Assembly: GCA_029558515.1 (NCBI GenBank)
Contig: JAKQEM010000024.1
Location: 57,164 to 121,163 of the forward strand
Source of the DNA: a bacterium
Lineage (GTDB): Bacteria > Patescibacteriota > Gracilibacteria > Peribacterales > Peribacteraceae
Direction: 5' to 3'
DNA length: 64,000 nucleotides
How positions within the stretch are numbered: the stretch's first letter is position 1; each line of letters begins with the position of its first letter. Position numbers and translations under genes: made by a program. Under the pieces are notes generated by a model. It saw only the letters and a list, made by a program, of their open reading frames with translations, made no database searches and was not told the DNA's origin. Shown here piece after piece: positions 4,492-59,566 of the stretch.

Positions 4492-4520
4492 CGAACTAAC
4501 GAAGTAACGAACTAACGAAC
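4466..4520. repeat. Tandem TAACGAAN octamer array filling the murF-DegT spacer
   Basis: CAACGAA CAACGAAG TAACGAAA TAACGAAC TAACGAAG TAACGAAC TAACGAAC. The murF stop (4489-4491) is one of the TAA copies. The array ends 1 nt before the ATG at 4522. Confidence 0.9.
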
Positions 4521-6092: not shown

Positions 6093-7223
6093 ATGCACGT
6101 CCAACCCGCCACCGATGCTCAAGCTTGGGAATCGTTCCTGACGAACCGCCCTGATGCCCTCTTTCTGCAAAGCTGGACGATGGGCGAAGTGTACCGGGAC
6201 ATCGGGCAGGAGCCCGTGCGATTGGAAATACGGAACGACTCGGGTGCCATCAGCGGCATCTGCCAAGCCATCGTGGTCCCGGCCCGGCGCGGCAGACACC
6301 TGATGGTGCAGTACGGACCGGTGCTGGAAGATCCCGCCGCCCTCTCTCCTCTCCTCGATACACTGAAAGACATCGCTCGAGATCATCATTGCTCTTTCCT
6401 TCGCATCAGCCCATTCTGGCCGGAATCCCAAATCCCAAATCCCAAATCCCAAATCCCCGATTCTCTTCCCTCACCGCTCCATCTGCTCTCTGAGTACACC
6501 TGGTACATTCCCCTGAGACAAATTGATCCATGGGCGGAATTACGAACAAGCGAATCAATGCATCAACGAATCAACGACTATGCGGCCCCCGTCACAGAAG
6601 AATCCATCCTGAAGAACATGCGCAAAACGACTCGCAACCTGATCGGCAGGGCACAACGTGAAGGCGTCACCGTCGTCGCCTCCTCCCATCCATCGGCAGA
6701 TCTGAACATCTACTTTCGGCTGCAGAAGGAAACGACGCACCGGCATGGATTCGTCCCGTATCGCGACTCCTTCATCCGCGCACAGGTGGCGCACTTCGCA
6801 CCCAAAGGACAAGCCATCGTGTACATCGCACGGTACAAAGACGAACCGGTCGCCGCATCGGTCCACATGAGCTACGCAAGCATCACCAGCTACCATCACG
6901 GCGCCTCCACGCACAAGTACGCCAAAATCCCCGCAAGTTACCTGCTGCAATGGACCGCGATTCGTGAAGCCCTGCATCGCGGCGACTGTGTCTACAACTT
7001 CTGGGGCATCGCTCCGCCGAGTCATGAGTCTCGAGTCTTGAGTGATGAGCAACCGCTCAAAACTCACCGCTCCGGACACCCCTTCGCCGGCGTCACCACG
7101 TTCAAAACTGGATTCGGCGGAAAACCTCTCCCGCTGATGCACTGCCGCGATGTGCCCCTTTCCCGCACGTACCGATTCACGCGAGCATTTGAGACGGTGC
7201 GCAAGTGGAAACGAGGATTCTAG
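6093..7223 (+). CDS. FemAB-family peptidoglycan interpeptide-bridge aminoacyltransferase
   Basis: FLQSWTMGEVY, NMRKTTRNLIGRAQREGV, YHHGAST, YLLQW and FKTGFGG match the FemAB/lipid II peptidyltransferase pattern. Start is at the ATG at 6093 (MHVQP). Confidence 0.75.
   Translation: MHVQPATDAQAWESFLTNRPDALFLQSWTMGEVYRDIGQEPVRLEIRNDSGAISGICQAIVVPARRGRHLMVQYGPVLEDPAALSPLLDTLKDIARDHHCSFLRISPFWPESQIPNPKSQIPDSLPSPLHLLSEYTWYIPLRQIDPWAELRTSESMHQRINDYAAPVTEESILKNMRKTTRNLIGRAQREGVTVVASSHPSADLNIYFRLQKETTHRHGFVPYRDSFIRAQVAHFAPKGQAIVYIARYKDEPVAASVHMSYASITSYHHGASTHKYAKIPASYLLQWTAIREALHRGDCVYNFWGIAPPSHESRVLSDEQPLKTHRSGHPFAGVTTFKTGFGGKPLPLMHCRDVPLSRTYRFTRAFETVRKWKRGF
6424..6458. repeat. In-frame AATCCCA heptamer array in the FemAB gene
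   Basis: AATCCCA x4 followed by AATCCCC, translated SQIPNPKSQIP. Confidence 0.9.
7023..7050. repeat. In-frame NNTGAGT heptamer array in the FemAB gene
   Basis: CATGAGT CTCGAGT CTTGAGT GATGAGC. This is the reverse complement of the AAGACT/GAGACT word family seen at 30448-30468 and 50255-50310. Confidence 0.7.
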
Positions 7224-7725: not shown

Positions 7726-7865
7726 TCAGGCAATCAGCGCCTTCCACTCGCTCCACGAAAGTCCTCTCCCGGGATACGCGGAATTCTTGAAGGGCCACGC
7801 ATCGTGCATCCACTGTCACACAGGGCAATACAACACGTCCTTGAGCCCGCTTTTTCCCCTATCCC

Positions 7866-7910
7866 ACCTCCTTCGTCCCTAGTCCCTAGTCCCCCGTCCT
7901 CATCCCTCCC
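7866..7910. repeat. TCGTCCC/TAGTCCC heptamer array at the 3' end of a convergent gene
   Basis: TCGTCCC TAGTCCC TAGTCCC CCGTCCT CATCCCT. The stop codon of the 7900..9336 gene lies inside the array. Confidence 0.8.
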
Positions 7911-12087: not shown

Positions 12088-14031
12088 TTGAAGAATGCAG
12101 TGTTTTCTGCTATGATAAGAGGAAAGTCACTTATGCCAAACACACAGAACTCCCCGCCGGCCTCTCCCCGTCCCCGTGCCGCGAACCCCGCCATCGAGGC
12201 CATCGATGAATTACTGGGGCTCCATGGCAAACCGGGGAAAGAGAACGAGCACGACAATCAGCCGGAAGACAAAACATTGACGCCGGAAGAGCGCGAACAA
12301 ATCAGGCACTACGAGCAAGGACTCCAGAAGATGCTCGATCTCATCGCCCCTGCGGGCATGCAGGTCCGTTCAAAAGAAATCGCGATGAATGACCAGCTCG
12401 TCCGGACGCTCTACTCGTTCAACTGGCCGAATTTCATCTACCCCAACTGGATGAGCACGACCATCAACCAGGACGTCACGATGGACATCGCGCACTACAT
12501 CTACCCGTCATCGAACAAAGCGATCATGAAAATGCTGCGCAAGAAGGTGGCGGAACTGCGCAGTTCCATTCGCATGCTGGAGCAACGAGGCATCGTCCGC
12601 GACCCCACGTTGGAAGCCGCGCTCCAGGACGCCGAGGAATTGCGTGATCTGCTCGCGCGCGGACAGGAGAAACTCTTCCAGTTCGGCATGTACGTCACGC
12701 TGTACGCCGATGACGAGGAGCGCCTGAAGAAGATCCAGACGGACGTGGAATCCGTACTGGGAGGGAAATTGATCCTCACCAAACCGGCGTACTTCCAAAT
12801 GGAGCACGGATGGACTTCCACGCTCCCCATCTGCCAGGACGAACTGGAGATCAACCGCAACATGAACACATCGCCGCTGGCCGCCAGCTTCCCCTTCTCC
12901 AGCAGCGATCTCACCGACGACCACGGCATTCTCTACGGCATCAACCGACACAACGACTCCCTCGTGATTTTCGATCGATTCGACATGCCCAACGCCAACA
13001 GCAACATCTTCGCGACCTCCGGCGCGGGTAAGTCCTTCACGGCCAAGCTGGAACTGCTGCGGTATCTGATGCAGGGGACCGAAGTACTCGTCATCGATCC
13101 GGAGAACGAATACACCAATTTGTGCGAAGCCGTCAGCGGCTCATTCATTCCCCTCTCCATCCAGAGCCCCTTCCGCATCAACCCCTTCGATCTGCCCACC
13201 GCCATCCGCGGCGATGATGCGGAGACGGGCGAAGTGCTGCGTGCATCCGTCGTGAACCTCCACGGTCTCCTGCGTCTGATGCTCGGGCCCATCACGCCAT
13301 CGGAAGACGGTATTCTGGACAAAGCAATCCTCGATACCTACGCGCTCAACGGCATCTCACTGACGACGGAGAATCCCGGCGCCATCGAACCGCCCACGCT
13401 GGGGCAATTGGTCGATGTGCTGATGACGAGTGAAGGCGGCGAGAACATGGCTCGCATCCTGCAGAAGTACACGACGGGCAGCTTCGCGGGACTCTTTGAT
13501 CAAAAGACGAACGTGGAACTCGACCGGCAGATGATCGTCTTCCAGATTCGCGATTTGGAGGAGCAACTGCGCCCCATCGCCATTTACATCGTCCTGAATT
13601 TCCTCTGGAACCGCATCCGCTCCCAGATGCGCAAGCGCATCCTGGTGATCGACGAAGCCTGGAACCTGATGCAGCACGAGGACTCCGCGCGCTTCCTCTT
13701 CGGCATCGTGAAACGCGCACGCAAGTACTACCTGGGTGTCACCACCATCACGCAGGACGTGGACGACTTCGTGGAATCACCCTTCGGCAAAGCCATCATC
13801 ACAAACTCTTCGCTGCAAATCCTGCTCAAACAATCCCCCACCACTGTCGATAACCTGCAGAAACTCTTCTACCTGACGGACGGCGAGAAGAACGTCCTGC
13901 TCAATTCCGACGTGGGCCAGGGCATCATCTTCGCGGGATACAAGCACGTCGCGGTGCAGATCATCGCCGGGCCGGAGGAAGCCACGTTCATTACGACCAA
14001 GCCGTCGGAAATCATGAAGAAGAAAGAGTAA
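12088..14031 (+). CDS. VirB4/TraC (Tn916 Orf16/PrgJ)-like secretion ATPase lacking the N-terminal domain
   Basis: Middle domain is LIAPAGMQV ... YSFNWP ... DIAHYIYP. Walker A is TSGAGKSFT and Walker B is ILVIDEAW. YYLGVTTITQD is also present. Confidence 0.8.
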   Translation: MKNAVFSAMIRGKSLMPNTQNSPPASPRPRAANPAIEAIDELLGLHGKPGKENEHDNQPEDKTLTPEEREQIRHYEQGLQKMLDLIAPAGMQVRSKEIAMNDQLVRTLYSFNWPNFIYPNWMSTTINQDVTMDIAHYIYPSSNKAIMKMLRKKVAELRSSIRMLEQRGIVRDPTLEAALQDAEELRDLLARGQEKLFQFGMYVTLYADDEERLKKIQTDVESVLGGKLILTKPAYFQMEHGWTSTLPICQDELEINRNMNTSPLAASFPFSSSDLTDDHGILYGINRHNDSLVIFDRFDMPNANSNIFATSGAGKSFTAKLELLRYLMQGTEVLVIDPENEYTNLCEAVSGSFIPLSIQSPFRINPFDLPTAIRGDDAETGEVLRASVVNLHGLLRLMLGPITPSEDGILDKAILDTYALNGISLTTENPGAIEPPTLGQLVDVLMTSEGGENMARILQKYTTGSFAGLFDQKTNVELDRQMIVFQIRDLEEQLRPIAIYIVLNFLWNRIRSQMRKRILVIDEAWNLMQHEDSARFLFGIVKRARKYYLGVTTITQDVDDFVESPFGKAIITNSSLQILLKQSPTTVDNLQKLFYLTDGEKNVLLNSDVGQGIIFAGYKHVAVQIIAGPEEATFITTKPSEIMKKKE

Positions 14032-14165
14032 CCAGACGGGGAAAACGGAGTAACAGGACGGGAATAAGAGTAACAGAGTAACAGAGTAACAGAGTAACAG
14101 GTCTGTATTGAACGGGGCTTCCAACCCTGTTACTCAGTTATTCGGTTATTCCGATACTCCCTCCT
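14026..14165. repeat. Inverted octamer arrays between the convergent VirB4-like and DHH genes
   Basis: GAGTAACA occurs as 4 tandem copies (14068-14099). GAGTAACAGG (14092-14101) pairs perfectly with CCTGTTACTC (14126-14135). The right arm is TGTTACTC AGTTATTC GGTTATTC CGATACTC. Both stop codons (14029-14031, 14146-14148) lie inside the arms. Confidence 0.9.
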
Positions 14166-15285: not shown

Positions 15286-16155
15286 ATGTCTGCTTCCGTC
15301 ATCTTCTGCGGCACGCCCGCCTTCGCTGTTCCGTCACTGGAAGCGCTCGCCGCCGATCCGGCATTTGACGTGTCGCTCGTCATCACCCAGCCCGATCGCC
15401 CGGTGGGTCGCAGCAAAGAACTCATTGCCTCTCCCGTGAAACAAGCAGCGCAACGATTGCATCTTCCCGTCGCACAACCGGAGAATATCAATCACATGCT
15501 CGCAGATACCCAATACCCAATCCCCAATCCCCAATTTCTCATCGTCGTCGCCTACGGCCAAATCCTCTCGCAACACATCCTCGACCTTCCGCAGATCGCC
15601 CCCGTGAATGTCCACGGTTCGCTGCTCCCGCGCTGGCGCGGCGCTTCTCCCGTCGAACATGCGATCCTCGCGGGGGACACCGAAACCGGCGTGACCATTC
15701 AGATCATGGAGACGACGCTGGACACCGGCCCCATCCTCGCGATGCGCAAGACACCGATTGGTCCGCGCGACACGACGCTCCAACTCAAGGAACGTCTGTG
15801 TGTGATCGGTGCAGATCTCTTGGTGCAGACACTGAAAGCACCTCTCCGGCCCATCCCACAACCGACTGAAGGTATCACCGTCTGTCGCAAGCTCTCGCGG
15901 GAAGATGGCAGAGCCGAGCCGCAAACTATGACTGCGCAGCAAATCGATCGCATGGTCCGCGCACTGGTCCCCTGGCCGGGCGTCACCTGCTTCATCAATG
16001 GTCAAGCACTCAAACTCATCGCAACGGCACTCGAACCGACGGACACGTCGATTCCCCTCCCCTGCGCGCAGGGGACGACACTGCATCTCGTCACCGTGCA
16101 GGAAGCGGGGAAGAGGGCAATGACGGGGCAGGAGTGGGAGAGAGGGCAGCGTTAA
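15286..16155 (+). CDS. fmt: Methionyl-tRNA formyltransferase
   Basis: VIFCGTPAFAVPSL, ITQPDRPVGR and NVHGSLLPRWRGASPVEHAI are classic Fmt motifs. Confidence 0.9.
   Translation: MSASVIFCGTPAFAVPSLEALAADPAFDVSLVITQPDRPVGRSKELIASPVKQAAQRLHLPVAQPENINHMLADTQYPIPNPQFLIVVAYGQILSQHILDLPQIAPVNVHGSLLPRWRGASPVEHAILAGDTETGVTIQIMETTLDTGPILAMRKTPIGPRDTTLQLKERLCVIGADLLVQTLKAPLRPIPQPTEGITVCRKLSREDGRAEPQTMTAQQIDRMVRALVPWPGVTCFINGQALKLIATALEPTDTSIPLPCAQGTTLHLVTVQEAGKRAMTGQEWERGQR
15508..15535. repeat. In-frame ACCCAAT/CCCCAAT heptamer array in fmt
   Basis: ACCCAAT ACCCAAT CCCCAAT CCCCAAT, translated TQYPIPNPQ. Confidence 0.9.
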
Positions 16156-16204: not shown

Positions 16205-16238
16205 CCCAATACTCATAACTCTCAACTCTCAACTCTTC
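16204..16238. repeat. ACTCTCA heptamer array at a convergent gene end
   Basis: ACTCATA ACTCTCA ACTCTCA ACTCTTC. The stop of the 16237..16542 gene lies in the last word. The word family is the same as at 50332-50373. Confidence 0.85.
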
Positions 16239-25199: not shown

Positions 25200-26387
25200 A
25201 TGAAAGTCGCTCTCGTCCATGAACTCCTCACTATGCGCGGCGGCGCCGAGCGCGTGCTGCGCGTCTTCGCACGACTATTTCCCGATGCGCCCATCTTTAC
25301 GCTCCTATATGACGAGAAGAAACTGGGCGACTGGTTTCCGCGAGAGCGCATCCGCACCAGCCCGCTGCAATCCAGAGCCCGCTTCCTGAATCATTTCGCA
25401 TTTCGCATTTCGCATTTCGCATTCGATCATCATCTCTACCTCCGCAGATTCCCCGCCGCAGTGGAATCCTGGGACTTCTCCGACTTCGATCTGGTCATTT
25501 CCAATTCATCCGCCTTCACCCACGGCATCCTGACCAACGGCAAACCCAAACACCTCTGCTTCGTGCAGTCTCCCGCCCGCTATCTGTGGGATCGGACGCA
25601 TGATGTGCTCTGGCAAGCGAGCACCGGTCCCTTTGGCCCGCTCAAGCGGTTCTATCTCTCACGCACATTCCATGACCTGCGCGTGTGGGATGCGGAAGCC
25701 GCCCCCCGCCCCGACGTGCTGCTGACATCCTCGCGCACGGTGCAACGTCGCATCCAATTGTACTGGAATCGCGAGAGCACGGTGCTCTATCCTCCCATTG
25801 ATGATTTCTGGTTTGAAAAGAAGCGAACAACGAACAACCCATTCGACACGCTCAGGGCAAGCGAACAACGAACAACATCGCCATTCCTCGTCGTCTCCAC
25901 CCTCGTTCCCTACAAGCGCATCGACATCGCCGTGGAAGCGTGTACGAGGGGGAACATTCCCCTGCTCATCGCCGGCGACGGGCCGGACCGGAAGAGACTG
26001 GAAAGAATAGCGGGACCGACCGTGCGGTTCCTCGGCTATCAACACAGTGAACAACTGAAGGAGCTGTATACGGAAGCCACGGCAACTCTCTTCGTCGGAC
26101 AGGAAGACTTCGGACTGGTCCCGCTGGAATCGATGGCATGCGGAACACCTGTGATCGCCTATCGTGCGGGAGGAGCGTTGGAAACGGTGATGGAGGGGGA
26201 AACGGGCACATTCTTTGATGAGCAAACGGCGGAAAACCTTCTGCGCACCATCCTCAACTTTGATCACAAAATATACTCAAAAGAAAAGTGCATAAAGAAC
26301 GCTGAAAAGTTCAGAGAATCAACGTTCGAACAACAATTGTTATCAAATATTGATGCATTGATGCATTCCGACGCCCGCAAAGGCTGA
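25200..26387 (+). CDS. GT4-family glycosyltransferase
   Basis: KVALVHELLTMRGGAERV is at the N-terminus. EDFGLVPLESMACGTPVIA..GGALETV is the E(x7)E region. Confidence 0.8.
   Translation: MKVALVHELLTMRGGAERVLRVFARLFPDAPIFTLLYDEKKLGDWFPRERIRTSPLQSRARFLNHFAFRISHFAFDHHLYLRRFPAAVESWDFSDFDLVISNSSAFTHGILTNGKPKHLCFVQSPARYLWDRTHDVLWQASTGPFGPLKRFYLSRTFHDLRVWDAEAAPRPDVLLTSSRTVQRRIQLYWNRESTVLYPPIDDFWFEKKRTTNNPFDTLRASEQRTTSPFLVVSTLVPYKRIDIAVEACTRGNIPLLIAGDGPDRKRLERIAGPTVRFLGYQHSEQLKELYTEATATLFVGQEDFGLVPLESMACGTPVIAYRAGGALETVMEGETGTFFDEQTAENLLRTILNFDHKIYSKEKCIKNAEKFRESTFEQQLLSNIDALMHSDARKG
25392..25426. repeat. In-frame CATTTCG heptamer array in the GT4 gene
   Basis: CATTTCG x4 followed by CATTCGA, translated HFAFRISHFAFD. 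The reverse complement of this word (GCGAAAT) recurs at 59357-59384. Confidence 0.9.
25821..25876. repeat. Two copies of AAGCGAACAACGAACAAC inside the GT4 gene
   Basis: An 18-nt direct repeat at 25821-25838 and 25859-25876, translated KRTTNN ... SEQRTTS. Confidence 0.85.
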
Positions 26388-29704: not shown

Positions 29705-30415
29705 ATGGCAGGAAACACCCGGAAGAGAAAAGCGAACGAACGGCCTCGTGGCAAGCAGTACCGCGAGAAAGCGGCACTCATCACGCAGGAGTGCTACCCG
29801 ATCGAGGAAGCAACGACGTTGCTCACGAAGCTTTCGACGACGAAATTCGACGCGACCGCAGAAGCCCACATCCGCATCAACGCCGATACCACCCAGGCCG
29901 ATCAGCTGGTGCGCACAACGGTCAACCTGCCTCATGGAACGGGTAAATCCGTTCGCATCGCCGCGTTTGTTCCGGATGATCAAATCAACGATGCCAAGAA
30001 AGCAGGCGCCGATCTGGCGGGCAGCGAGGAACTGATCAAAGCCATCGAGAGCGGTGAGATCAACTTCGACGTCGCCATCGCAATCCCCGCCATGATGAAG
30101 AGCTTGGGAAAGATCGCTAAAATCTTGGGGCAGAAAGGCATGATGCCAAACCCCAAGGCCGGCACGGTGACGGACAATATCGCCCAATCCATCGGCGAAC
30201 TCAAGAAGGGCCGCATCGAATGCCGCATGGACAAGTTCGGCATCATCCACGTTCCCTTCGGCAAGCTCTCTTTTGGCGGACAGAAACTGAAGGAGAATCT
30301 GGAAGCACTGCTTTCCGCGCTGGAGGAAGCCAAACCTTCCGGCATCAAGGGCACCTACATCCGCTCCCTCTCCATCGCCCCCACCATGGGACCGGGAGTG
30401 AAGGTGCAGATGTGA
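29705..30415 (+). CDS. rplA: 50S ribosomal protein L1
   Basis: The L1 pattern is KFDATAEAHIRIN, VNLPHGTGKSVRIAAF and MMPNPKAGTVT. ATG at 29705. Confidence 0.9.
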   Translation: MAGNTRKRKANERPRGKQYREKAALITQECYPIEEATTLLTKLSTTKFDATAEAHIRINADTTQADQLVRTTVNLPHGTGKSVRIAAFVPDDQINDAKKAGADLAGSEELIKAIESGEINFDVAIAIPAMMKSLGKIAKILGQKGMMPNPKAGTVTDNIAQSIGELKKGRIECRMDKFGIIHVPFGKLSFGGQKLKENLEALLSALEEAKPSGIKGTYIRSLSIAPTMGPGVKVQM

Positions 30416-31424
30416 GTGGAGAGTTGAGAGTGGAGAGTTTGATAGAACAAGACTCAAGACTCAAGACTTTCGTCACTTCCGCAAGCGTCTCCACCCGCAC
30501 CAACTTCTGCCGCAACTCTGCCGCGCCATCGAATCCTTTGACGTAACTCGCCAAGTGCCGGCGCATTTCCATCATGCCCCGCTTCTCCCCCTTCGTGGCG
30601 ACCGCGAGCGCGCAGTGCTCCAGTATAAGGGGGATTTTCTCCTGAAACGTGAGCCGATCCCTGCTTGAGACGGGATCTGCGTGTCCGCTCGCAAAGGCAT
30701 CGGCGACGTCCCGCAGGAGCCATGGATTGCCAAAGGTCGCGCGCCCCACCATGACGCCGTCGAGGTTGCCGATTTTTGCAAGAGCATCCGCCCCCGTCGC
30801 AATGTCACCGTTGCCGATGACGGGAATGGTACTGTGCCGCTTGAGTGCGTAGATCGGCTCCCAGTTCGCCGCGCCCCTGAATTGTTGTTGATACGTCCTG
30901 CCGTGGACGGAGAGCGCCTTCGCCCCGGCTTGCTCCAGAAGCGCGCCAAAGGAGAGCAATGTCTCCGCGCTGTCCCACCCCAACCGCGTTTTCACGCTGA
31001 CAGGGATGGAAACAGCCTGCACCGTGGCATGGACGAGTTCAGCCGCGAGCTCCGGTTGCCGGATGAGCGCCGCTCCATGACAGGAGGAGACAACTTTCGC
31101 CGCGGGACACCCCATGTTGATGTCAATCCCGTCAACACCCATCTGCTCGATCACCTTGGCGGCCTCCAGAAAATGCTCGGGCTTCTTCCCGAAGATCTGC
31201 ACGATGAACGGCCGTTCAACTACGGGATCGAAAGACAGCATGTGCATCGTCTTCTTCCCTTTGTGCGCGAGCGCATCCGTACTGAGGAGCTCCGTAAAGA
31301 CGACCGTCTGCGGTGCAAGACGCTTGATGAGCTGCCGATACGACGCATCCGTATAGCCGGCCATCGGCGCGAGCGCGAGGATGGGACGGGGGAGATCACC
31401 CCAGGAGAAGGAGGAAGTATGCAA
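30345..31424 (-). CDS. tRNA-dihydrouridine synthase with a repeat-derived C-terminal extension
   Basis: LAPMAGYTD and GIDINMGCPAAKV match the Dus family. The last ~40 codons run through a heptamer array and antisense into the rplA 3' end (71-nt overlap). Confidence 0.85.
   Translation of the reverse strand: MHTSSFSWGDLPRPILALAPMAGYTDASYRQLIKRLAPQTVVFTELLSTDALAHKGKKTMHMLSFDPVVERPFIVQIFGKKPEHFLEAAKVIEQMGVDGIDINMGCPAAKVVSSCHGAALIRQPELAAELVHATVQAVSIPVSVKTRLGWDSAETLLSFGALLEQAGAKALSVHGRTYQQQFRGAANWEPIYALKRHSTIPVIGNGDIATGADALAKIGNLDGVMVGRATFGNPWLLRDVADAFASGHADPVSSRDRLTFQEKIPLILEHCALAVATKGEKRGMMEMRRHLASYVKGFDGAAELRQKLVRVETLAEVTKVLSLESCSIKLSTLNSPLTSAPSLPVPWWGRWRGSGCRCP
30413..30468. repeat. Heptamer array between convergent rplA and dus
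   Basis: TGAGTGG AGAGTTG AGAGTGG AGAGTTT GATAGAA CAAGACT CAAGACT CAAGACT: 8 phased words starting at the rplA TGA. The first half is the reverse complement of the CACTCTC/AACTCTC family. Confidence 0.9.
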
Positions 31425-37596: not shown

Positions 37597-39006
37597 ATGA
37601 CCAAACAACAATCCCGGACAACCGGCACAACCATCCTCATGGATCAACTGATGAAAGACTCCCCGCAAATTTTCCGGGCCCGCCCGGGAGAGCTGGTGGA
37701 TGGAACGGTCGTCTTCAGGGGAAAGAACAAGTTGCTCTTGGATATCCGCGGCGTCTCCACCGGCATCATTTCGGGTCGGGAACTGCGCGATTCCTTCAAC
37801 ACATTCCACGAACTGCAGGCCGGCGACATCGTCTCCGCGATGGTGCTGGAAGAGGAGAACGACGAAGGTCTGGTCGTGATGAGCCTCCGGATGGCCAGCC
37901 AGCGCAAGGCATGGGATAAGTTCCATAAGCTGATCGAGCAGGACGGCACCATGAAGTTCACGGCGCAGGAAGCCAATAAGGGCGGACTCATCACGAACAT
38001 CGACGGCATCCGCGCCTTCCTGCCCGTCTCGCAACTTGCACCCGTCAACTACCCGCGCGTCAGCAACGCCGACTCCACGGAAATCATCGGCCGCCTGCAG
38101 AAATTCGTCGGACACACGTTCACGGTGAAGATCGTCACGATGGATGAAGAGGCGGGAAAGATCGTCGTCTCCGAGCGCGATGCGATGGCCGAAGAACGGT
38201 CGAAGTCGTTGGAATTGCTCAAGATCGGCGACGTCAAGGACGGCGTGGTCTCCGGCGTCGTGAAGTTCGGTCTCTTCGTCACCTTCGACGGTCTGGAAGG
38301 ACTGGTGCACATCTCCGAGATCGCCTGGGGCCACGTGAAGAATCCCGCGGAGTTCGCGCAGATCGGCGACAGAGCGCGCGTGAAAGTCATCGGCGTGGAC
38401 GGCGATAAGCTCAGCCTCTCCATCAAGCAGCTCACGCAGGACCCGTGGGAAGAGGTGGCGGAGCGCTATCCCGTCGGCAAGAAGGTCACCGGCACCATCG
38501 TCCGATTCGCCGATTACGGCGCCTTCCTGAAGCTGGAGAAAGATATCAACGGACTCGTGCACCTCTCAGAAATCGCCCACCACAAAGTGACCGACCCGTC
38601 CGAAGTCCTCACCATCGGCCAGAAGATCGATGCGCAAGTCATCAACATCGATATCGACGAGCGCCGCATCGGACTTTCCATCAAGGCCCTCAAACCCATC
38701 GACCGGGAGACGATGGAACGAATTAAGAAAGAAGCGGCGGAAGCGAAGGGGGCGAAGGAAGTGAAGGAAGTGAAAGAGTCCGATGCAGACACGCCCAAAG
38801 CAAAGAAAGTTTCCAAGAAGGGAGAATCGTCGGTTGCCTCGGAATCATCTGCTGCTTCGGTTGCCCCGCAGGAAGGTTTTGTCGCTTCCAAATCCGGGAA
38901 GAAGTACTACCCGGCAGATTCCGCGGCAGGCAAGAAGATCGCTGAGGAGAACCGCGTGCACTTCAAGACGATGGAGGAAGCGGAGAAGGCGGGGTATGCG
39001 GCGTAG
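37597..39006 (+). CDS. rpsA: 30S ribosomal protein S1 (four S1 domains) with a Lys/Glu-rich C-terminal tail
   Basis: Repeated S1 OB-fold motifs (GELVDGTVV, GDIVSAMVL, GDVKDGVVSGVVKFGLFV, GKKVTGTIVRFADYGAFL). The tail ends KYYPADS..NRVHFKTMEEAEKAGYAA. The ORF opens at 37471. Confidence 0.85.
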   Translation: MTKQQSRTTGTTILMDQLMKDSPQIFRARPGELVDGTVVFRGKNKLLLDIRGVSTGIISGRELRDSFNTFHELQAGDIVSAMVLEEENDEGLVVMSLRMASQRKAWDKFHKLIEQDGTMKFTAQEANKGGLITNIDGIRAFLPVSQLAPVNYPRVSNADSTEIIGRLQKFVGHTFTVKIVTMDEEAGKIVVSERDAMAEERSKSLELLKIGDVKDGVVSGVVKFGLFVTFDGLEGLVHISEIAWGHVKNPAEFAQIGDRARVKVIGVDGDKLSLSIKQLTQDPWEEVAERYPVGKKVTGTIVRFADYGAFLKLEKDINGLVHLSEIAHHKVTDPSEVLTIGQKIDAQVINIDIDERRIGLSIKALKPIDRETMERIKKEAAEAKGAKEVKEVKESDADTPKAKKVSKKGESSVASESSAASVAPQEGFVASKSGKKYYPADSAAGKKIAEENRVHFKTMEEAEKAGYAA

Positions 39007-39116
39007 GGATTGGGAATTGGTCTATTGGGGATTGGGACGGATCTGAGCATGAACGAACCCTTTTAGATCGTCCTCTTCCCAATTCCAAATCCCAAACCCC
39101 GAATCCCCAATCCCCC
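39007..39116. repeat. Inverted heptamer arrays filling the rpsA-HAD spacer
   Basis: The left arm is GGGATTG GGAATTG GTCTATT GGGGATT GGGACGG. The right arm is CCCAATT CCAAATC CCAAACC CCGAATC CCCAATC CCCC. GGGGATTGGGA (39028-39038) is the perfect complement of TCCCAATCCCC (39105-39115). Confidence 0.9.
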
Positions 39117-39785
39117 ATGCACGCCTTCCTCTTCGACTTCGACGGGGTGATCGTGGACTCCGAGCGACACTGGGCGCAAGCGGATACGACGTTCTTTCCG
39201 ACGATCGCACCGGGGTATGACGCATCCGATGTGCGCAACATGATGGGATTGGGACTGCGATCGGGGTATGACTACCTGCGGAAACGACGAGGATTGTCAT
39301 TGTCTTTTGAGGAATACTCAACGGTAGTGGAGGCAGAAGTCGGCGACATCTACACGCAAAAGGCACAACTGCTCCCGGGAGCGGGCGCATTGATTGCGCG
39401 CATGCAGTCTCCGGAGATGCGCATCGGGATCGCCTCTTCGTCCAAGCGCGCCTGGATCGACGCCGCGCTGACCCGACTGGGCCTGGTTGATGCATTCCCC
39501 GTCATCGCCACCGCAGACGACGTGAACGGCCGCACCAAGCCCGATCCCGCCGTCTACCTGCACGCGGCGGACGCATTGCATGTGGAGCCGACGACTTGCA
39601 TCGCCCTGGAAGATTCCGACAACGGCATTGCGGCAGCCCTCAGCGCCGGCATGACTTGCATCGCACTCAGGACAGACATGAATCCGACGCAGACACTCAC
39701 ACAGGCGCACCACACTGTCTACGGCCTCGATGAGGTAACCGACGCACTACTGAAAAACCTTTCCCGGTCCATCCTCCGTCCGTAA
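39117..39785 (+). CDS. HAD-IA family hydrolase (beta-phosphoglucomutase-like)
   Basis: FLFDFDGVIVDSE (motif I), IASSS (motif II) and EDSDNGIAAA (motif IV). Confidence 0.85.
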   Translation: MHAFLFDFDGVIVDSERHWAQADTTFFPTIAPGYDASDVRNMMGLGLRSGYDYLRKRRGLSLSFEEYSTVVEAEVGDIYTQKAQLLPGAGALIARMQSPEMRIGIASSSKRAWIDAALTRLGLVDAFPVIATADDVNGRTKPDPAVYLHAADALHVEPTTCIALEDSDNGIAAALSAGMTCIALRTDMNPTQTLTQAHHTVYGLDEVTDALLKNLSRSILRP

Positions 39786-48296: not shown

Positions 48297-48708
48297 GAGA
48301 GCGGTGGTCATCGGAGCATCCTTGCTCGTTCCTCCCGGCCACTCACACGCCTCCTTGTGCAACCTCTGGGTATAGGATACGTGATCATTGGTTCTCCCCT
48401 GCGGGTGACTACCGCTCTCTCTGCTCTGCAATGATTCGTACGGAGAAGAGAGGTCAGCTCTCCGTGCGCATCCCCCTTTCTTCCCAGTGTCCGCCTCCGC
48501 CCTCATGGGTGTTGCGCTGGACCGGTCCGGGAACTTCGGCTGGTCCCGAGGAGAAACAAGAGACCGGAGCACGGCAGAGAATCGAGGGCTCCTCCCCTCA
48601 GTCTTCCTCCAGGCATGATCAGCGGCTCAATGGTCTTTGCACCATCGATAGTCGCGGAGGCAGACGAAACACCCAAACAAAAAGGCACCGAGGAGGTGTC
48701 TTTTTGTC
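48297..48708 (+). ncRNA. Candidate structured non-coding RNA (family unknown) ending in an intrinsic terminator
   Basis: There is no credible ORF. A 14-bp long-range stem pairs 48297-48310 with 48406-48419, and several GC hairpins follow. The element ends in the terminator at 48684-48708. The strand is inferred from the terminator T-run. Confidence 0.3.
48684..48708 (+). terminator. Intrinsic terminator, copy 1 of an identical 25-nt repeat
   Basis: AAAAA-GGCACC-GAGGA-GGTGTC-TTTTTGTC. The A-run upstream makes it potentially bidirectional. Confidence 0.6.
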
Positions 48709-48849
48709 ATGCAAAGATACTGTGCGAAGCGCGGGTCTCGTGGGTTCCCGCGCTGGAGCACTCCCGAAAGGAAGGGTGGGTTCACGGGAGGGAAACCATC
48801 GGTTTCCATCCCGTGCATCAAATTGGCACCGAGGAGGTGTCTTTTTGTC
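48709..48849 (+). ncRNA. Second candidate structured RNA or leader ending in the same terminator
   Basis: One hairpin is GCGCGGG-N11-CCCGCGC (48729-48753). A nested hairpin, CACGGGA-G-GGAAACC-ATC-GGTTTCC-A-TCCCGTG, spans 48783-48815. The terminator follows at 48825-48849. Confidence 0.3.
48825..48849 (+). terminator. Intrinsic terminator, copy 2 (identical 25 nt)
   Basis: GGCACCGAGGAGGTGTCTTTTTGTC is identical to 48684-48708. Confidence 0.6.
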
Positions 48850-48965
48850 GAAGCAAAAAATCCCAGTAAAAATGCGCATTCCTCATTAAGGAAATACATT
48901 GCAACACACTCAGACTATTTTGAAAGACCTGTGGATGGCAGGAAAATGGCTTTTTTGCTAGAATC

Positions 48966-48998: not shown

Positions 48999-50243
48999 AT
49001 GTCTCTCCACACCCTCATGTTCGGATGGGAGTATCCCCCGCTTCACTCGGGAGGATTGGGGGTGGCCTGTCAGGGGCTGGTGAAGGGACTCTTGAAGAAC
49101 GGCACACGCGTCACACTGGTCCTGCCGATGAACGCATCGCATGACGAAGGAGCGCAGCTTGCCATGCGCGGACCGGGACAAGGCATGGACGGCGACGAGC
49201 CCGATATTCGGTTCATCGAGAGTGCGTTGCAACCCTACGAGGGAACGGCGGAGTATGAAGAGCGTATGATTGCGGCGGCGACTGCAAACGGCCAACCGTT
49301 CATCGATCTCTACGGACCGGATCTCGGTCAGGCAGTCGAGCGATTCACGGCCATGAGCATCGAAAAGACGAAAGACGTGCAAGCGGACGTCGTCCACTGC
49401 CACGATTGGATGACCTACGATGCTGGAATCCGCGCGGCAACATACCATCGTAAACCGCTGGTTGCACACATCCATGCCACGGAACTCGATCGTACGGACT
49501 TCCATCCCAATCAGTGGATCGCCGAGCGCGAACGATCGGGCTTCCTGCAAGCGGATCGCATCATTGCCGTCAGCCAGTACACAAAAAATATTCTGGTACG
49601 ACACTACGGCATCGCCGCGGACAAGATCAGCGTGGTCCACAACGGCCACAACGTATCCGCGCCCGTCGCGCATCACAACACCATCGTGTCCTCTGCCATC
49701 CACAAGCGTGCGCCGCTCGTGCTCTTTGTGGGACGTCTCACGCTGCAGAAGAACCCGCGACAATTTTTGGACACGGCGAAGATCGTGCACGAGCTGCGTC
49801 CTGATGTGCAATTCGTGATGGCCGGCGACGGCCCGATGCTCCCCGAACTCATGGACCACGCCTGCGCGCTGGGCCTCACCGACTGCGTGTCCTTCACGGG
49901 CACGGTCACTCGCAAGGAAGTCGATCAGCTCTATAAATCGGCGGACTGCTTCGTGATGCCCTCCTTGAGTGAACCCTTCGGATTGGTTGCACTGGAAGCC
50001 ATCGCCCAAGGGACGCCCGTCATTCTCAGCAAACAATCCGGTGCGGCGGAAGTCATCGAACACGGATTCAAAGTCGATTTCTGGGACACGGATAAATTCG
50101 CCGACTGCATCCTCACAATCCTGCGGGAGCAACCGCTGGCCGAACAGCTCATCGCCGAAGCTCCGTCCATACTCCACCGCCTCAACTGGCAAAACCAAGC
50201 GAACAACGTGATGTCGATCTATAGAGACTTACTGAAGACGTGA
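48999..50243 (+). CDS. Glycosyltransferase, glycogen-synthase-like (GT4/GT5 GT-B fold)
   Basis: FGWEYPPLHSGGLGVACQGL is at the N-terminus. Other motifs are HCHDWMT and PSLSEPFGLVALEAIAQGTPVI. Confidence 0.75.
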   Translation: MSLHTLMFGWEYPPLHSGGLGVACQGLVKGLLKNGTRVTLVLPMNASHDEGAQLAMRGPGQGMDGDEPDIRFIESALQPYEGTAEYEERMIAAATANGQPFIDLYGPDLGQAVERFTAMSIEKTKDVQADVVHCHDWMTYDAGIRAATYHRKPLVAHIHATELDRTDFHPNQWIAERERSGFLQADRIIAVSQYTKNILVRHYGIAADKISVVHNGHNVSAPVAHHNTIVSSAIHKRAPLVLFVGRLTLQKNPRQFLDTAKIVHELRPDVQFVMAGDGPMLPELMDHACALGLTDCVSFTGTVTRKEVDQLYKSADCFVMPSLSEPFGLVALEAIAQGTPVILSKQSGAAEVIEHGFKVDFWDTDKFADCILTILREQPLAEQLIAEAPSILHRLNWQNQANNVMSIYRDLLKT

Positions 50244-50422
50244 GTGATGACTTATGAGACGTGAGATATGAGACATAAGACGTAAGACACAAGTAACCAG
50301 ATACGAGACAACGAGATAACGAACTAACGAATTCTCTCCACTCTCAACTCTCAACTCTCCACTCTCAACTCCCCCGTCCTTCGTCCTTCGTCCCTCGTCC
50401 TTAGTCCTTCCTCCCCCGTCCC
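50241..50422. repeat. 26 phase-locked heptamer words filling the whole spacer
   Basis: The sequence parses without a phase slip from the TGA at 50241 to the base before the ATG at 50423 (word list in the findings). Confidence 0.95.
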
Positions 50423-51817
50423 ATGCCCGCCGTCTGCTTCTACTTCCAGGTCCATCAGCCCTACCGCCTCAAAGATCTGCGCATTCGACACATGGACTGT
50501 GAGCACCCTGCGTACTTCGACGAAGAGAAGAACCGACAGATCTTCCGGAAAGTCGCGGAGAAGTGCTATCTGCCGACCAACAAGCTGATGCTGGATCTGC
50601 TGAATCGACACAAGGATTTCCACATCGCATACTCGCTCTCCGGCGTCTTCCTCGACCAATGCAAGGAATACGGACCCGACGTACTGGCATCCTTCCAGGA
50701 GTTGGCAAAGACAGGCAAAGTAGAATTCCTCGCGGAAACCTATTACCACTCGCTCTCCGCCGTCGCATCGATCGGTGAATTCGCCGAACAAGTGGGCATG
50801 CACGTGCGTGCCATGGAAGAACTCTTCGGCCAAACCCCGCGCACCTTCCGCAATACCGAACTCATCTTCAACAATGAAATAGCCCAGATAGCGCGGCTCA
50901 TGGGCTTCTCCGGCATCATCGCCGAAGGCACTGACCATCTGCTGCGTGGCCGCAGTCCCAATAACCCCTTCCGCATCCCGCAGTTCCGCGTCAGCCGCGG
51001 CCAGGAGCGCGCCATCGGCACCAAGCGTCCTCTGGCGGAACGGGCGAAAGACATCACGGTCCTCTTGAAGAACTATCGCCTCAGCGATGACATCGCCTTC
51101 CGTTTCTCCGACCGCAACTGGTCCGGGCATCCCCTCTCCGCGGAAACGTACGCCGACTGGGTGCAGCACAATGACGGCCACACGGTCAATCTCTTCATGG
51201 ACTACGAAACCTTCGGCGAACATCAATGGGCCGATACGGGTATCTTCGATTTTTTGGAAGCATTGCCGCGCATACTGGGAGCGCGTGGCATCCCCTTCTT
51301 TACACCCGCACAAGCCATTGATACCTGGAAAAACAAACACCGTGACCTCTACGACGTTCACTCCACCATTTCCTGGGCGGATACCGAACGCGATCTCTCC
51401 GCGTGGACCGGAAATCGCATCCAGCAGAGCGCCCTGCATGCGGCATTCGCATTGGAACACGCCATCAAAGCATCGGAGGATGCAGAACTCCTGAACGTTT
51501 GGCGCAAACTCCTCACCTCAGACCACCTCTATTACATGAGCACCAAGTACTGGAATGACGGCGACGTACACAAATACTTCAGCCCGTACGAATCCCCCTA
51601 CGAAGCCTACCGCCGTTTCAGTCACGCGCTGTGCGACCTGAGGGAGCGCGTAACGATCGGCGCAACGAGTGCGGTGAAAACGAAACAACGCACCAAGAAA
51701 CACGCGACCATAAGCACGGGGCGGAAGATACAAGACGCAAGACACAAAAATGCGACGAAACGAGAAACGAATAAACGAAATAACGAAATAACGAACAAAC
51801 GAACTTCTATCTCCTGA
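50423..51817 (+). CDS. GH57-family glycoside hydrolase with a repeat-derived C-terminal tail
   Basis: VCFYFQVHQPYRL, and a GH57-like FMDYETFGEHQW region. The last ~30 codons are read from a heptamer array. Confidence 0.8.
   Translation: MPAVCFYFQVHQPYRLKDLRIRHMDCEHPAYFDEEKNRQIFRKVAEKCYLPTNKLMLDLLNRHKDFHIAYSLSGVFLDQCKEYGPDVLASFQELAKTGKVEFLAETYYHSLSAVASIGEFAEQVGMHVRAMEELFGQTPRTFRNTELIFNNEIAQIARLMGFSGIIAEGTDHLLRGRSPNNPFRIPQFRVSRGQERAIGTKRPLAERAKDITVLLKNYRLSDDIAFRFSDRNWSGHPLSAETYADWVQHNDGHTVNLFMDYETFGEHQWADTGIFDFLEALPRILGARGIPFFTPAQAIDTWKNKHRDLYDVHSTISWADTERDLSAWTGNRIQQSALHAAFALEHAIKASEDAELLNVWRKLLTSDHLYYMSTKYWNDGDVHKYFSPYESPYEAYRRFSHALCDLRERVTIGATSAVKTKQRTKKHATISTGRKIQDARHKNATKRETNKRNNEITNKRTSIS
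51727..51817. repeat. 13-word heptamer array forming the 3' end of the GH57 ORF
   Basis: GATACAA GACGCAA GACACAA AAATGCG ACGAAAC GAGAAAC GAATAAA CGAAATA ACGAAAT AACGAAC AAACGAA CTTCTAT CTCCTGA. Confidence 0.85.
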
Positions 51818-51833: not shown

Positions 51834-53882
51834 ATGCCCCGTTCTCTCGTCCTCGGCAACGGCTCACTCCTCTGCACGTTCGACGCGAACATGGAGATGC
51901 GCGATCTCTACTTCCCGTTCGTGGGCATGGAGGATCACACGACCTACGGCAACGTCCATCGCATGGGCTTCTTCGTGGAACACAAAGGCTTCTCCTGGGT
52001 CAGCGACGGTACATGGCAAATCACACCGGGATACAAGCTGGATACGCTGGTGGGACAATCGACACTGCGCAATGACCGATTGGGACTCAGCATCGTGCTG
52101 GAAGACTGCGTTCACCCGGTGCACAACGTGCTGCTGCGACGCATGCGCATCTCCGCCACCGATGGAGAGGAAAAGGTCGTGAAGTGTTTCTTCCATCACA
52201 ATGTACACATCTACGGAGACAACCAGAAGGACACGGCGTTCTACGAACCCTACACCAATGCAGTCATTCATTTCCGCGAGCGACGGTACTTCCTGATCGG
52301 CGGCGTCACCAACCGCGCCATGGAATGCCGGATGCCCGTGAACGCAGGCAGCGCGGAATCCGTGCTGCACAGCAAGAGAAATCTCCTGAGCTCCGGCCTC
52401 AGTTCCTACTCCATCGGCAAGGCCAACTACCGCGGACTGGAAGGAACGTGGCGCGACGCCGAAGACGGAGAACTGAGCCGCAATCCCATCGAGCAGGGCT
52501 CCGTGGATTCCACCGTGGCCATCCATTGCCGCGTGAGTCCCGCGGAACCGACGGATGTGACACTGATGGTCTGCGTCGGACGCTCGCTGGATGAAGTCAT
52601 CAATCTGGAACAGATTGTGCTGGAGGAAACACCCGACCGCCTCTTCCGCAACTGCGCCAACTACTGGAAGAGCTGGGTGAACAAACTACCCCTCCCCGAA
52701 CAAGACATCGAAGCCGATATCCTCCATCTCTTCCGGAGAAGTCTCTTCATGATGCGCGCCCACGCAGATGCCAATGGCGGCATTCTGGCAGCGGCAGACA
52801 GTGATATCATGGCATTCAACCGCGACACCTACACCTACGTTTGGCCGCGCGACGGTGCATTCATCAGCCTCGCTCTGGATCAAGCGGGTTACAGCGAAGT
52901 CTCCCGGCGTTTTTTCGAATTCTGTCGACAGATTCAAACGCCTGACGGGTATCTGATGCACAAGTATAACCCCGATGGCTCCGTGGGTTCTTCGTGGCAC
53001 CCGTGGTTCCGACGAGGCGAACTGCAATTGCCCATTCAGGAAGATGAGACGGCGTTGGTGCTGGTCGCCCTCCTGCACCATTTCGAACACACGAAAGACT
53101 TTGAATTTTTGCAGAACATGTACGAGAGCTTCATCAAGAAAGCCGCGCAGTTCCTCTGCGACTATCGGGAAGATGAGACGGGGCTGCCGCTCCCCAGTTA
53201 CGACCCGTGGGAGGAGCACCGCGGCATCTTCACCTACACCAGCGCCACCACCATCGCCGGCCTCTCCGCCGCCGCGCAGATCTCGCAGATGCTGGGACAT
53301 GTCACGCATTCCGAAAAGTATCAGACTGCCGCAGACAACATGAAGCAAGCGATGCTCTTCCATCTCTTCGATGAGGAGACGAAGCGCTTTGTGAAGAAAA
53401 TCCAACGTCGCGACGGTCACACGATCGAAATCGACCGCACGCCCGATGCCAGCTTGGGAATCATCTGGAAGCTGGGTGTCCTGCCTCCGGATGACCCGCG
53501 CGTCATCTCCACCATGAACCAACTGAGAGACACCCTGACGGTACGCACATCGATCGGAGGTTTGGCCCGATTCACCAATGATTGGTACCACGCCGCCGTC
53601 ACCCCTTCCGCCGAAGTACCGGGCAATCCCTGGATCATCACGACGCTCTGGGACGCACAGTGGCGCATCGCCTTGGCCAGGAAACCGGAAGATCTGGCGC
53701 CCGCACGTGAAATCTTGGAATGGGCCGTCAGCCGCGCCTCCGTCGCAGGGCTCCTGCCCGAGCAAGTCCATCCATTCGACGGCACTCCCCTGTCCGTTTC
53801 TCCTCTCACCTGGAGCCACGCAGTCTTTGTGGAAACGGTACTGCAGTATGCGGAGAAATCTCAAGAATTCTCACATAAATAG
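51834..53882 (+). CDS. GH15-family glycoside hydrolase (glucoamylase/glucodextranase-like)
   Basis: LGNGSLLCTFD is at the N-terminus. YVWPRDGAFISLAL and DPWEE also fit. The length and domain order are typical of bacterial/archaeal GH15. Confidence 0.85.
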   Translation: MPRSLVLGNGSLLCTFDANMEMRDLYFPFVGMEDHTTYGNVHRMGFFVEHKGFSWVSDGTWQITPGYKLDTLVGQSTLRNDRLGLSIVLEDCVHPVHNVLLRRMRISATDGEEKVVKCFFHHNVHIYGDNQKDTAFYEPYTNAVIHFRERRYFLIGGVTNRAMECRMPVNAGSAESVLHSKRNLLSSGLSSYSIGKANYRGLEGTWRDAEDGELSRNPIEQGSVDSTVAIHCRVSPAEPTDVTLMVCVGRSLDEVINLEQIVLEETPDRLFRNCANYWKSWVNKLPLPEQDIEADILHLFRRSLFMMRAHADANGGILAAADSDIMAFNRDTYTYVWPRDGAFISLALDQAGYSEVSRRFFEFCRQIQTPDGYLMHKYNPDGSVGSSWHPWFRRGELQLPIQEDETALVLVALLHHFEHTKDFEFLQNMYESFIKKAAQFLCDYREDETGLPLPSYDPWEEHRGIFTYTSATTIAGLSAAAQISQMLGHVTHSEKYQTAADNMKQAMLFHLFDEETKRFVKKIQRRDGHTIEIDRTPDASLGIIWKLGVLPPDDPRVISTMNQLRDTLTVRTSIGGLARFTNDWYHAAVTPSAEVPGNPWIITTLWDAQWRIALARKPEDLAPAREILEWAVSRASVAGLLPEQVHPFDGTPLSVSPLTWSHAVFVETVLQYAEKSQEFSHK

Positions 53883-59349: not shown

Positions 59350-59566
59350 GATAAATGCGAAATGATAAATGCGAAATGCGAAAATGAATAATAGTGACAA
59401 GGACTGCAAGGATGACAAAGACTACAAGGAATACAAAAATGACGTCGATAACAATATTCCTCCTTCATTACACATACATACATATATCCTTGTCTTCTTT
59501 GTAATCTGTTCCCCTCATTATTTTCTACCCCCTACAACCTACCCCCAACCCCCTGCCCCCTTCATC
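59350..59566. repeat. Long low-complexity word array in the trpS-rluA spacer
   Basis: GATAAAT GCGAAAT GATAAAT GCGAAAT GCGAAAA ... then CAAGGA-type words ... then CTACCCC CTACAAC CTACCCC CAACCCC CTGCCCC. Both ends are 7-phased; the middle is less regular. Confidence 0.8.

Follow-up and report, generated by a model that had tools for sequence, protein, structure and literature searches.

Stacked short tandem repeat arrays in the spacer between a GT4 glycosyltransferase gene and a GH57 gene of a Peribacteria genome

We analysed a 64,000-nucleotide (nt) stretch of contig JAKQEM010000024.1 (assembly GCA_029558515.1), hereafter the window, and in particular the spacer that separates a gene for a GT4-family glycosyltransferase (49017–50243, + strand) from one for a GH57 glycoside hydrolase (50423–51817, + strand), with a GH15 gene (51834–53882) 3′ of the latter. 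This focal spacer (50241–50422, 182 nt) starts with the GT4 stop codon TGA and ends immediately ahead of the GH57 ATG, leaving a stop-to-start gap of 179 nt that consists nearly entirely of short tandem repeats. It is a composite of four adjacent arrays, three heptameric and one octameric, and was probably built up by slippage within a short gap between genes of one operon.

Anatomy of the spacer

Block boundaries were taken from Tandem Repeats Finder (TRF) and direct reading of the sequence. Block 1 (50241–50302, + strand) holds purine-rich heptamers TGAGACR/TAAGACR (purine fraction 0.72), with a clean core at 50254–50289 (TRF period 7, 5.1 copies) and degenerate edges. It includes the GT4 stop and, as an initial annotation of the spacer had stated and direct reading confirms, places TGA or TAA in all three frames over its first 50 nt, with stops at 50241, 50245, 50248, 50255, 50262, 50269, 50276 and 50283. 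The TGAGACG family forms an array at this block alone within the window. A period-21 duplication (50226–50271, + strand; TRF 2.1 copies, 84% matches) bridges the GT4 end and the array, pairing the last GT4 codons and the stop (GACTTAcTGAaGACGTGAG) with GACTTA-TGAGACGTGAG. With this duplication present and the TGAGACG family confined to the locus, block 1 was evidently seeded by a duplicated GT4 3′ end, stop codon included.

Block 2 (50303–50333, + strand) is an array of octamers, ACGARNTA, reading ACGAGACA ACGAGATA ACGAACTA ACGAATT, with TRF period 8 at 50303–50322. It belongs to a recurrent AACGAANN family and matches AACGAANNAACGAA at 50310 and 50318, a sequence matched at 4–5 further loci, always on the + strand. 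Block 3 (50334–50374, + strand) returns to heptamers, with ~5.9 copies of CTCTCMA (equivalent to AACTCTC/CACTCTC; TRF 50334–50371, period 7, 5.4 copies, 90% matches), and is G-free (G content 0.00). Block 4 (50375–50422, + strand) comprises ~6.9 copies of the pyrimidine-rich heptamer CGTCCYT (TRF period 7, 5.7 copies at 50375–50414 and 7.6 copies at 50370–50422), has a purine fraction of 0.15, and its last base directly precedes the GH57 ATG.

The initial annotation had parsed the spacer as a single phase-locked array of 26 heptamer words, free of phase slips, in which neighbours differ by one or two substitutions. The listed words do reproduce the 182 nt of 50241–50422 exactly, and ~17–18 of the 26 lie in clean period-7 arrays by TRF; the remainder do not, and one block is octameric. 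Phase is lost mid-spacer, since 50303–50333 is an 8-nt array, and adjacent words 10–14 differ at five to seven of seven positions. None of the block lengths (62 + 31 + 41 + 48 nt) is divisible by 7, and unrelated word families have no common phase, which makes the phase between them arbitrary and the fit of 182 to 26 × 7 a one-in-seven coincidence. Self-match within the spacer reaches 0.65 at lag 7, 0.59 at lag 14 and 0.55 at lag 21, against 0.2–0.35 at other lags.

Repeat arrays across the window

Segments were counted when their self-match over 28 nt was 75% or more, and the counts were compared with those in 200 local-composition (block) shuffles. At lags 4 to 12, the window contains 0, 0, 0, 13, 5, 1, 0, 0 and 0 segments, whereas the shuffles yielded a mean of 0.005–0.01 segments per lag. 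The arrays are far beyond chance in the window, and the period-7 excess, the absence of which the initial annotation had named as refuting its reading, is very large. Some 18 arrays occupy the 64 kb, about one per 3.5 kb; approximately half of the segments fall in non-coding DNA, which makes up 15% of the window, and the others within called genes.

Three of the focal word families recur in the window: CGTCCYT (block 4) at 500–520 and 7867–7880, AACTCTC (block 3) at 16217–16237 (+ strand) and 30412–30439 (− strand), and AACGAANN (block 2) at 3935–3956, 4474–4519, 6565–6578 and 51766–51803. All 15 AACGAANN dimer matches lie on the + (sense) strand. Dispersal of the CGTCCYT or AACTCTC arrays by a mobile element was considered and rejected, as similarity among the three loci of each family stops at the repeats and the flanks are non-homologous.

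Arrays also intrude into Pfam domains of conserved enzymes: an alpha/beta-hydrolase (2154–2186), a MurF-like ligase (3566–3599 and 3936–3955), FemAB (6424–6457 and 6542–6577), Met-tRNA formyltransferase (fmt; 15506–15535) and GT1 (25392–25423). Heptamer and octamer arrays within genes keep the reading frame. Comparison with Pseudomonas aeruginosa MurF (4cvk) shows the first MurF array to be a loop insertion of seven residues (21 nt, three units) ahead of the conserved IELGA motif, and the fmt array aligns gap-free to a variable helix of Escherichia coli Fmt, with no length change. The process that makes the arrays acts everywhere, filtered by reading frame and protein tolerance, and the presence of its products inside conserved enzymes favours a mutational origin over a spacer-specific device.

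Host lineage and related spacers

The best relatives of the GH57 protein all come from metagenome-assembled genomes of Candidatus Peribacteria, at 59–68% identity. GT4 is syntenic with GH57 in 15 Peribacteria loci, the full order GT4–GH57–GH15 is kept in 14 of them (the L015 contig ends before GH15), and in locus L002 synteny reaches two more genes, YgjP (68%) and a hypothetical protein (32%). These relatives and this synteny identify the host as a bacterium of the candidate phyla radiation (CPR), not a cyanobacterium, in agreement with the non-cyanobacterial impression given by the initial annotation.

The orthologous GT4–GH57 gaps are mostly 2–27 nt from stop to start and are unalignable. 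In L002 the gap holds AACCCTA ×4 abutting the ATG, and in L004 CATTTTC/CAATTCT ×5. Since orthologous spacers are mostly so short, and some carry different heptamers, the focal array is young, and neither conserved nor required. At the following junction, between GH57 and GH15, CAATTYT arrays stand just upstream of the GH15 ATG in L002, L004 and L005, the GH15 proteins of which are mutually 66–68% identical (pairwise BLASTP). The region L004:5324–5518 contains a 41-nt heptamer spacer, ATGCCTAACATCTGCTTCTACTTCCAG (MPNICFYFQ, the GH57 N-terminus), ~120 nt of GC-rich palindromic sequence and a second GH57 start, and looks like an insertion with a duplicated GH57 5′ end.

Period-7 segments number 13 in the 64 kb of the window, 12 in 252 kb from other Peribacteria and 14 in 1,063 kb from other phyla. 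In the other phyla (65 loci), lag 7 is the commonest (14 segments) and lag 12 the next (11), a lead that broadly agrees with Mrazek et al. 2007 in the summary given by PMC4679880. Heptamer or octamer arrays were also seen in Bacteroidia, Chryseolinea and Moraniibacteria loci (L072:9957–10003, L076:14831–18085 and L080:134–310); in L072 (Bacteroidia), CATAATT ×4 abuts the GH57 ATG. As an informal impression, lineages with weak use of Shine–Dalgarno (SD) sequences seem over-represented among array carriers.

Length variation among assemblies

The same genome was recovered by exact-protein look-up from the Logan assembly of SRR5007133 and from three Joint Genome Institute (JGI) metagenomes. A further look-up aimed at the 5′ half of the window brought back the same JGI contig and one Logan contig. 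Contig L088 (JGI 3300025859) matches window positions 5294–26155 (20.8 kb) without substitutions, and its sole difference is one additional AGAGTAAC unit (8 nt) in a sister array (14067–14100, + strand), which has four units in the window and five in L088:8781–8815. Because the only difference in 20.8 kb is one unit, unit gain and loss outpace point mutation in this lineage, as slipped-strand mispairing predicts, and slippage is ongoing. Growth by local duplication plus mutation, proposed in the initial annotation, is thus borne out by this one-unit polymorphism and by the duplicated GT4 end in block 1.

When the metagenome-contig collection was searched for other strain versions of the focal spacer, a gapped-anchor pattern gave no match, and the GH57 5′ anchor matched an unrelated organism only. 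Logan contigs L085, L086 and L089 end exactly at perfect arrays (window positions 6428, 14071/14096 and 25394/25421), which is a de Bruijn-graph effect. Such arrays fragment short-read assemblies and lengthen open reading frame (ORF) calls, and are relevant to the annotation of CPR genomes.

Proposed origin of the spacer

We hold with moderate confidence that the spacer is a slippage-generated stack of simple sequence repeats (SSRs) that expanded a short gap inside an operon, and that any function it has is passive. It is one case of the 7- and 8-nt tandem repeats that populate this genome. Slipped-strand mispairing, or unit-wise tandem duplication, would have acted at replication and been followed by point mutation, an origin in part observed and in part presumed. 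The GT4–GH57 gap would in this manner have been inflated from the 2–27 nt typical of relatives to 179 nt. The spacer would be transcribed within a GT4–GH57–GH15 mRNA and have no dedicated role. Selection would filter words according to place, leaving purine- and stop-rich words after GT4 and G-poor, start-free and open ones before GH57, so that the 3′ half would at most be of passive use, as an open leader on which ribosomes load for GH57. Promoter-like sites were found upstream of GT4 (48920–48964), and no promoter-like or terminator-like site within 50241–50422. A scan of the window at Rfam gathering thresholds returned seven tRNAs only, with no RNA family in the spacer.

Several observations weigh against this explanation. 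The principal one, with respect to a fully neutral account, is the recurrence of word families, which is unexplained by purely random local seeding. The CATTTTC/CAATTYT family is, moreover, common to Peribacteria whose GH15 proteins share only 66–68% identity. The polarity of the arrays, described below, follows the direction of transcription and needs either selection or a transcription-linked bias. Finally, the focal spacer showed zero length variation among the four samples compared, at the consensus level.

Array polarity and translation initiation

In co-directional spacers on both DNA strands, stop-adjacent arrays are purine-rich on the sense strand (purine fraction R = 0.65–0.78), and start-adjacent arrays are pyrimidine-rich and G-poor (R = 0.15–0.34), several being G-free. 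The 10 nt before the start codons of 68 window genes comprise 42% C, 28% T, 15% G and 16% A, and an SD-like 4-mer lies within 30 nt upstream of the start in 5 of the 68. Candidatus Peribacter riflensis is among the SD-scarce organisms without a CCUCC anti-SD (PMC10783764). Leaders in the window often have a C4–6 run and YCC right before the ATG (CCCCCCTCTCCCATG, CCCCCCTTTCCCATG, CTCCCCCGTCCCATG); the leader motif CCCGTCCC was unenriched in the window, with 6 matches versus 2.65 expected. The C/T-rich leader may be a lineage-specific initiation context. Blocks 3 and 4 look like the other leaders of this genome, merely longer. G-poverty implies that they hold no upstream start codons and no stable structure; by direct reading, 50334–50422 contains no ATG, GTG or TTG ahead of the real GH57 start. 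We infer that this constraint decides which repeat words survive beside a start.

It is possible, but in our judgement unlikely, that the G-poor arrays are themselves selected as SD-independent leaders, kept as unstructured, start-free pads to which ribosomal protein S1, for instance, could bind. The number of units would then determine or adjust how strongly GH57 is expressed, with the stop-rich purine block shielding it from GT4 translation. The SD-less genome, the presence of an S1 gene in the window (37597–39006), the G-free or G-poor sense strand of ATG-abutting arrays on both DNA strands, and the near lack of folding in blocks 3 and 4 (−1.5 kcal/mol over 119 nt) are all consistent with such a role, as are similar arrangements at loci of relatives (L002, L004 and L005) and of a Bacteroidia member (L072). 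The same idea has been proposed for TAACTGA repeats just upstream of starts in Beggiatoaceae (PMC4679880). Yet GH57 needs no array, most orthologous gaps being 2–27 nt without one, and ordinary leaders in this genome match the composition without repeats. Adjacency to a start is trivial once a short ancestral spacer expands, arrays of this kind also occur within coding regions, and no copy-number variation was seen at the focal locus in the four samples compared.

A still broader proposal, which we consider doubtful, is that heptamer and octamer arrays form a cis-regulatory system in SD-less bacteria (Peribacteria and perhaps Bacteroidota, cyanobacteria and Beggiatoaceae). If it were true, G-free arrays would be structure-free and start-free landing pads for the ribosome (S1), and complementary C-free arrays after the preceding stop would pair with the pads into stop-to-start hairpins, tying translation of the downstream gene to that of the upstream one. 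Slippage of units would adjust pad length and hairpin strength, and the focal spacer would represent an 'open' (unpaired) allele.

Recurrence of word families as binding sites

Another reading, which we regard as improbable, treats the AACGAANN, CGTCCYT and AACTCTC arrays as a multivalent platform for a sequence-specific RNA- or DNA-binding protein. It draws on three observations: three of the four focal word families recur without flank homology, which also counts against slippage as a complete account; the AACGAANN dimers are confined to the sense strand (15/15); and one family is common to Peribacteria at 66–68% GH15 identity. Against it, at least six unrelated families occur within 64 kb, block 1 is specific to its locus, words drift freely inside arrays, and no candidate binding protein was identified. 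The sense bias in coding regions is, furthermore, explicable by amino-acid tolerance, as AACGAA encodes N/E/T/K/R.

RNA folding and array-armed hairpins

The initial annotation had listed an RNA structure among its candidate functions, and the purine-rich 5′ half might be imagined to pair with the pyrimidine-rich 3′ half, providing translational coupling, an RNase III site or a terminator. Folding of the focal spacer makes this very unlikely. Its minimum free energy (MFE) of −30.1 kcal/mol is no better than that of shuffled sequence, whether dinucleotides are conserved (z = +0.48) or the two halves keep their separate compositions (z = +0.61); 0.3% of the ensemble adopts the MFE structure, and hardly any pairs are left in the centroid. 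With positive z in both controls, a stop-to-start RNA hairpin was rejected for the focal spacer. On its own, the 5′ half shows weak structure (−7.1 kcal/mol, z = −0.6), and blocks 3 and 4 with the first 30 nt of GH57 (50334–50452) have the MFE of −1.5 kcal/mol given above, at z = +1.44. The spacer also lacks a terminator-like site.

What speaks for the idea is that array-armed hairpins do form in other spacers, and that the focal spacer likewise has purine-rich sequence followed by pyrimidine-rich. The sister spacer between S1 and HAD (39004–39119, + strand) reads stop, GGGATTG ×4, loop, CAATCCC ×5, ATG, and folds with an MFE of −44.9 kcal/mol (z = −3.1, or −2.0 against half-wise shuffles). 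Hairpins between convergent genes lie at 14029–14165 (z = −4.1) and 380–490 (z = −3.8); the arms of one array-armed hairpin pair AGAGTAAC with GTTAYTC. Among relatives, a complementary GAAAATG array upstream makes the whole spacer a hairpin in L002 and L004 (L004:6725–6845, GAAAATG with CATTTTC arms, MFE −35.2, z = −3.96; L002:11215–11349, z = −2.5). In co-directional spacers the stem of such hairpins links a stop codon to the start codon that follows, and deeply diverged Peribacteria have kept the stop-to-start array hairpin as a shared architecture.

Phase variation and assembly artefact

A contingency (phase-variation) locus, in which gain or loss of units would switch or grade glycogen-metabolism genes, is likewise highly improbable. 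Unit-wise polymorphism is known in this genome (14067–14100), and SSRs in 5′ untranslated regions (UTRs) modulate expression in Moraxella and Haemophilus (PMC4679880, PMC12721329). The focal spacer, however, is base-for-base identical in L081, L082 and L083 (Logan SRR5007133; JGI 3300010356 and 3300009690) at the consensus level. Its arrays are imperfect, with 75–90% unit identity, which slows slippage; the neighbours are housekeeping carbohydrate enzymes, and arrays in the window stand beside genes of all kinds. Rehm et al. were likewise negative on this point for their heptamers (PMC4692102).

An assembly or consensus artefact, which the breaking of Logan contigs at perfect arrays might suggest in that assemblers struggle there, can practically be dismissed, as independent Logan and JGI assemblies from four samples reproduce the arrays and in-gene arrays stay in frame. 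The second refutation offered in the initial annotation, an assembly or consensus artefact, fails on the same assemblies.

Flanking genes and gene calls

The GT4 protein, glycogen-synthase-like, carries Pfam domains Glycos_transf_1, Glyco_transf_4 and Glyco_transf_5 (a gene call of 408 aa in L082), and the GH57 gene call (464 aa) carries Glyco_hydro_57 at residues 6–311. The tail of the GH57 ORF traverses two more arrays identified by TRF, AAGACAC at 51725–51747 and AAACGAAA at 51757–51809, which encode a basic, low-complexity C-terminal tail (ETNKRNNE). GH57 proteins of relatives have unrelated K/R-rich tails or an earlier stop, and because of this the array DNA at the GH57 3′ end is either recruited into the coding sequence or mis-called as such.

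Gene calls are affected elsewhere too. Those for L1 (+ strand, ending at 30415) and Dus (− strand, ending at 30345) overlap by 70 nt across arrays of GAGTGGA and CAAGACT (30345–30468), where the Dus call has probably been carried too far at its 3′ end, through repeat DNA that lacks stops. A longer tandem unit of 141 nt (47 codons) at 48678–48857, in the ORF 48615–48869, has extra copies in L082:6563–7016 (JGI 3300010356), and the hypothetical protein with this repeat measures 84 aa in the window versus 178 aa in the JGI contig.

Comparison with known repeat classes

Long simple sequence repeats (LSSRs) with units of 5–11 nt were reportedly defined by Mrazek, Guo and Shah (PNAS, 2007) as a class dominated by heptanucleotides. 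The focal spacer is a new member of this class, in a new host lineage. TRF finds head-to-tail tandem units within the 1–11-nt range, arrays are more frequent than composition predicts (13 segments at lag 7 and 5 at lag 8 versus 0.005–0.01), and 7 nt is the preferred unit in the window. Change in length by whole units is seen at the sister array 14067–14100 and was unseen at the focal spacer. Among the long SSRs of prokaryotes, heptanucleotides are the most frequent class and have been attributed to polymerase slippage, on the account of Mrazek 2007 contained in PMC4679880. Intergenic enrichment and a non-pathogen host are further shared features. Unlike the class as described, the window belongs to a small-genome CPR host, several unrelated families fill one spacer from stop to start, and array density is high, at ~18 arrays in 64 kb. 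Limited text searches found no such repeats described for Peribacteria or other CPR bacteria.

The short tandemly repeated repetitive (STRR) heptamers of heterocystous cyanobacteria, said to have been described by Mazel et al. in 1990, were the comparison made in the initial annotation. Their words are CCCCA(A/G)T (STRR1), TT(G/T)GTCA (STRR2) and CAACAGT (STRR3). The resemblance holds at the level of dispersed, mostly intergenic tandem heptamer families. Membership proper does not, since 50241–50422 contains no STRR1, STRR2 or STRR3 word, the host is not a cyanobacterium, and the window has many more families, one of them octameric. The STRR1 word CCCCAAT is indeed present in the window, as had been observed, in tandem at two loci (15515–15535 and 39024–39118): the dimer (CCCCAAT)2 lies within the fmt coding region and in the S1–HAD spacer. 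STRR2 and STRR3 words are at chance level or absent. Nor are STRRs the only comparable system, as had been supposed, for heptanucleotide repeats are already described as widespread in prokaryotes (Mrazek 2007, in the summaries of PMC4679880 and PMC4692102, the latter of which mentions those of Calothrix).

Rehm et al. 2015 (PMC4692102) described G-quadruplex-forming GGGNATC/GGGGAYT heptamers of Xanthomonas and Nostoc. Their G-rich strand coincides with the coding strand where they follow or overlap a stop, and with the non-coding strand where they lie shortly before a start. Arrays in the window follow this polarity rule on both DNA strands and, like the Rehm heptamers, lie between co-oriented ORFs and are unlinked to surface genes. 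In contrast, regular GGG tracts are absent from the focal words, read on either strand (TGAGACG, AACTCTC/GAGAGTT and CGTCCTT/AAGGACG), so that G-quadruplex formation would be unexpected at the focal spacer; it is conceivable at 39006–39036 and at 59525–59561 (− strand). Runs of G3–5 tracts with G-quadruplex potential follow two stops on the sense strand, at 59525–59561 and 7857–7899 (both − strand).

TAACTGA intergenic direct repeats occur in marine Beggiatoaceae, some Cyanobacteria and Bacteroidetes, and S1, Csp and CsrA have been proposed as their readers (MacGregor 2015, PMC4679880). Like these repeats, the focal array is at most a few nt away from a start, and its spacer has no canonical ribosome-binding site. 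Unlike them, it gives no match to (TAACTGA)2 with up to two mismatches, and the window has many array families in place of a single one, located also after stops and inside coding regions.

Promoters and 5′ UTRs of host-adapted pathogens can contain phase-variable SSRs, such as the AGAT repeats of Moraxella uspA2 and those of Haemophilus (PMC4679880, PMC12721329). The focal spacer shares with them a slippage-prone tandem repeat between upstream signals and the start codon, and differs in its longer and imperfect units, its housekeeping neighbours and the lack of variation seen at this locus in the four samples compared.

Knowledge of heptanucleotide repeats in prokaryotes goes back to 1990, with the STRRs. 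The present genome adds a new and unexpected host, a small-genome CPR bacterium dense in arrays; direct evidence that units are gained and lost faster than bases are substituted; and a clean anatomy, with purine-rich arrays after stops, G-free arrays before starts, some of them complementary and forming stop-to-start hairpins, and arrays that enter essential enzymes in frame. In the SD-less Peribacteria, a connection of heptamer arrays with SD-independent initiation, at which the Beggiatoaceae had already hinted, becomes testable.

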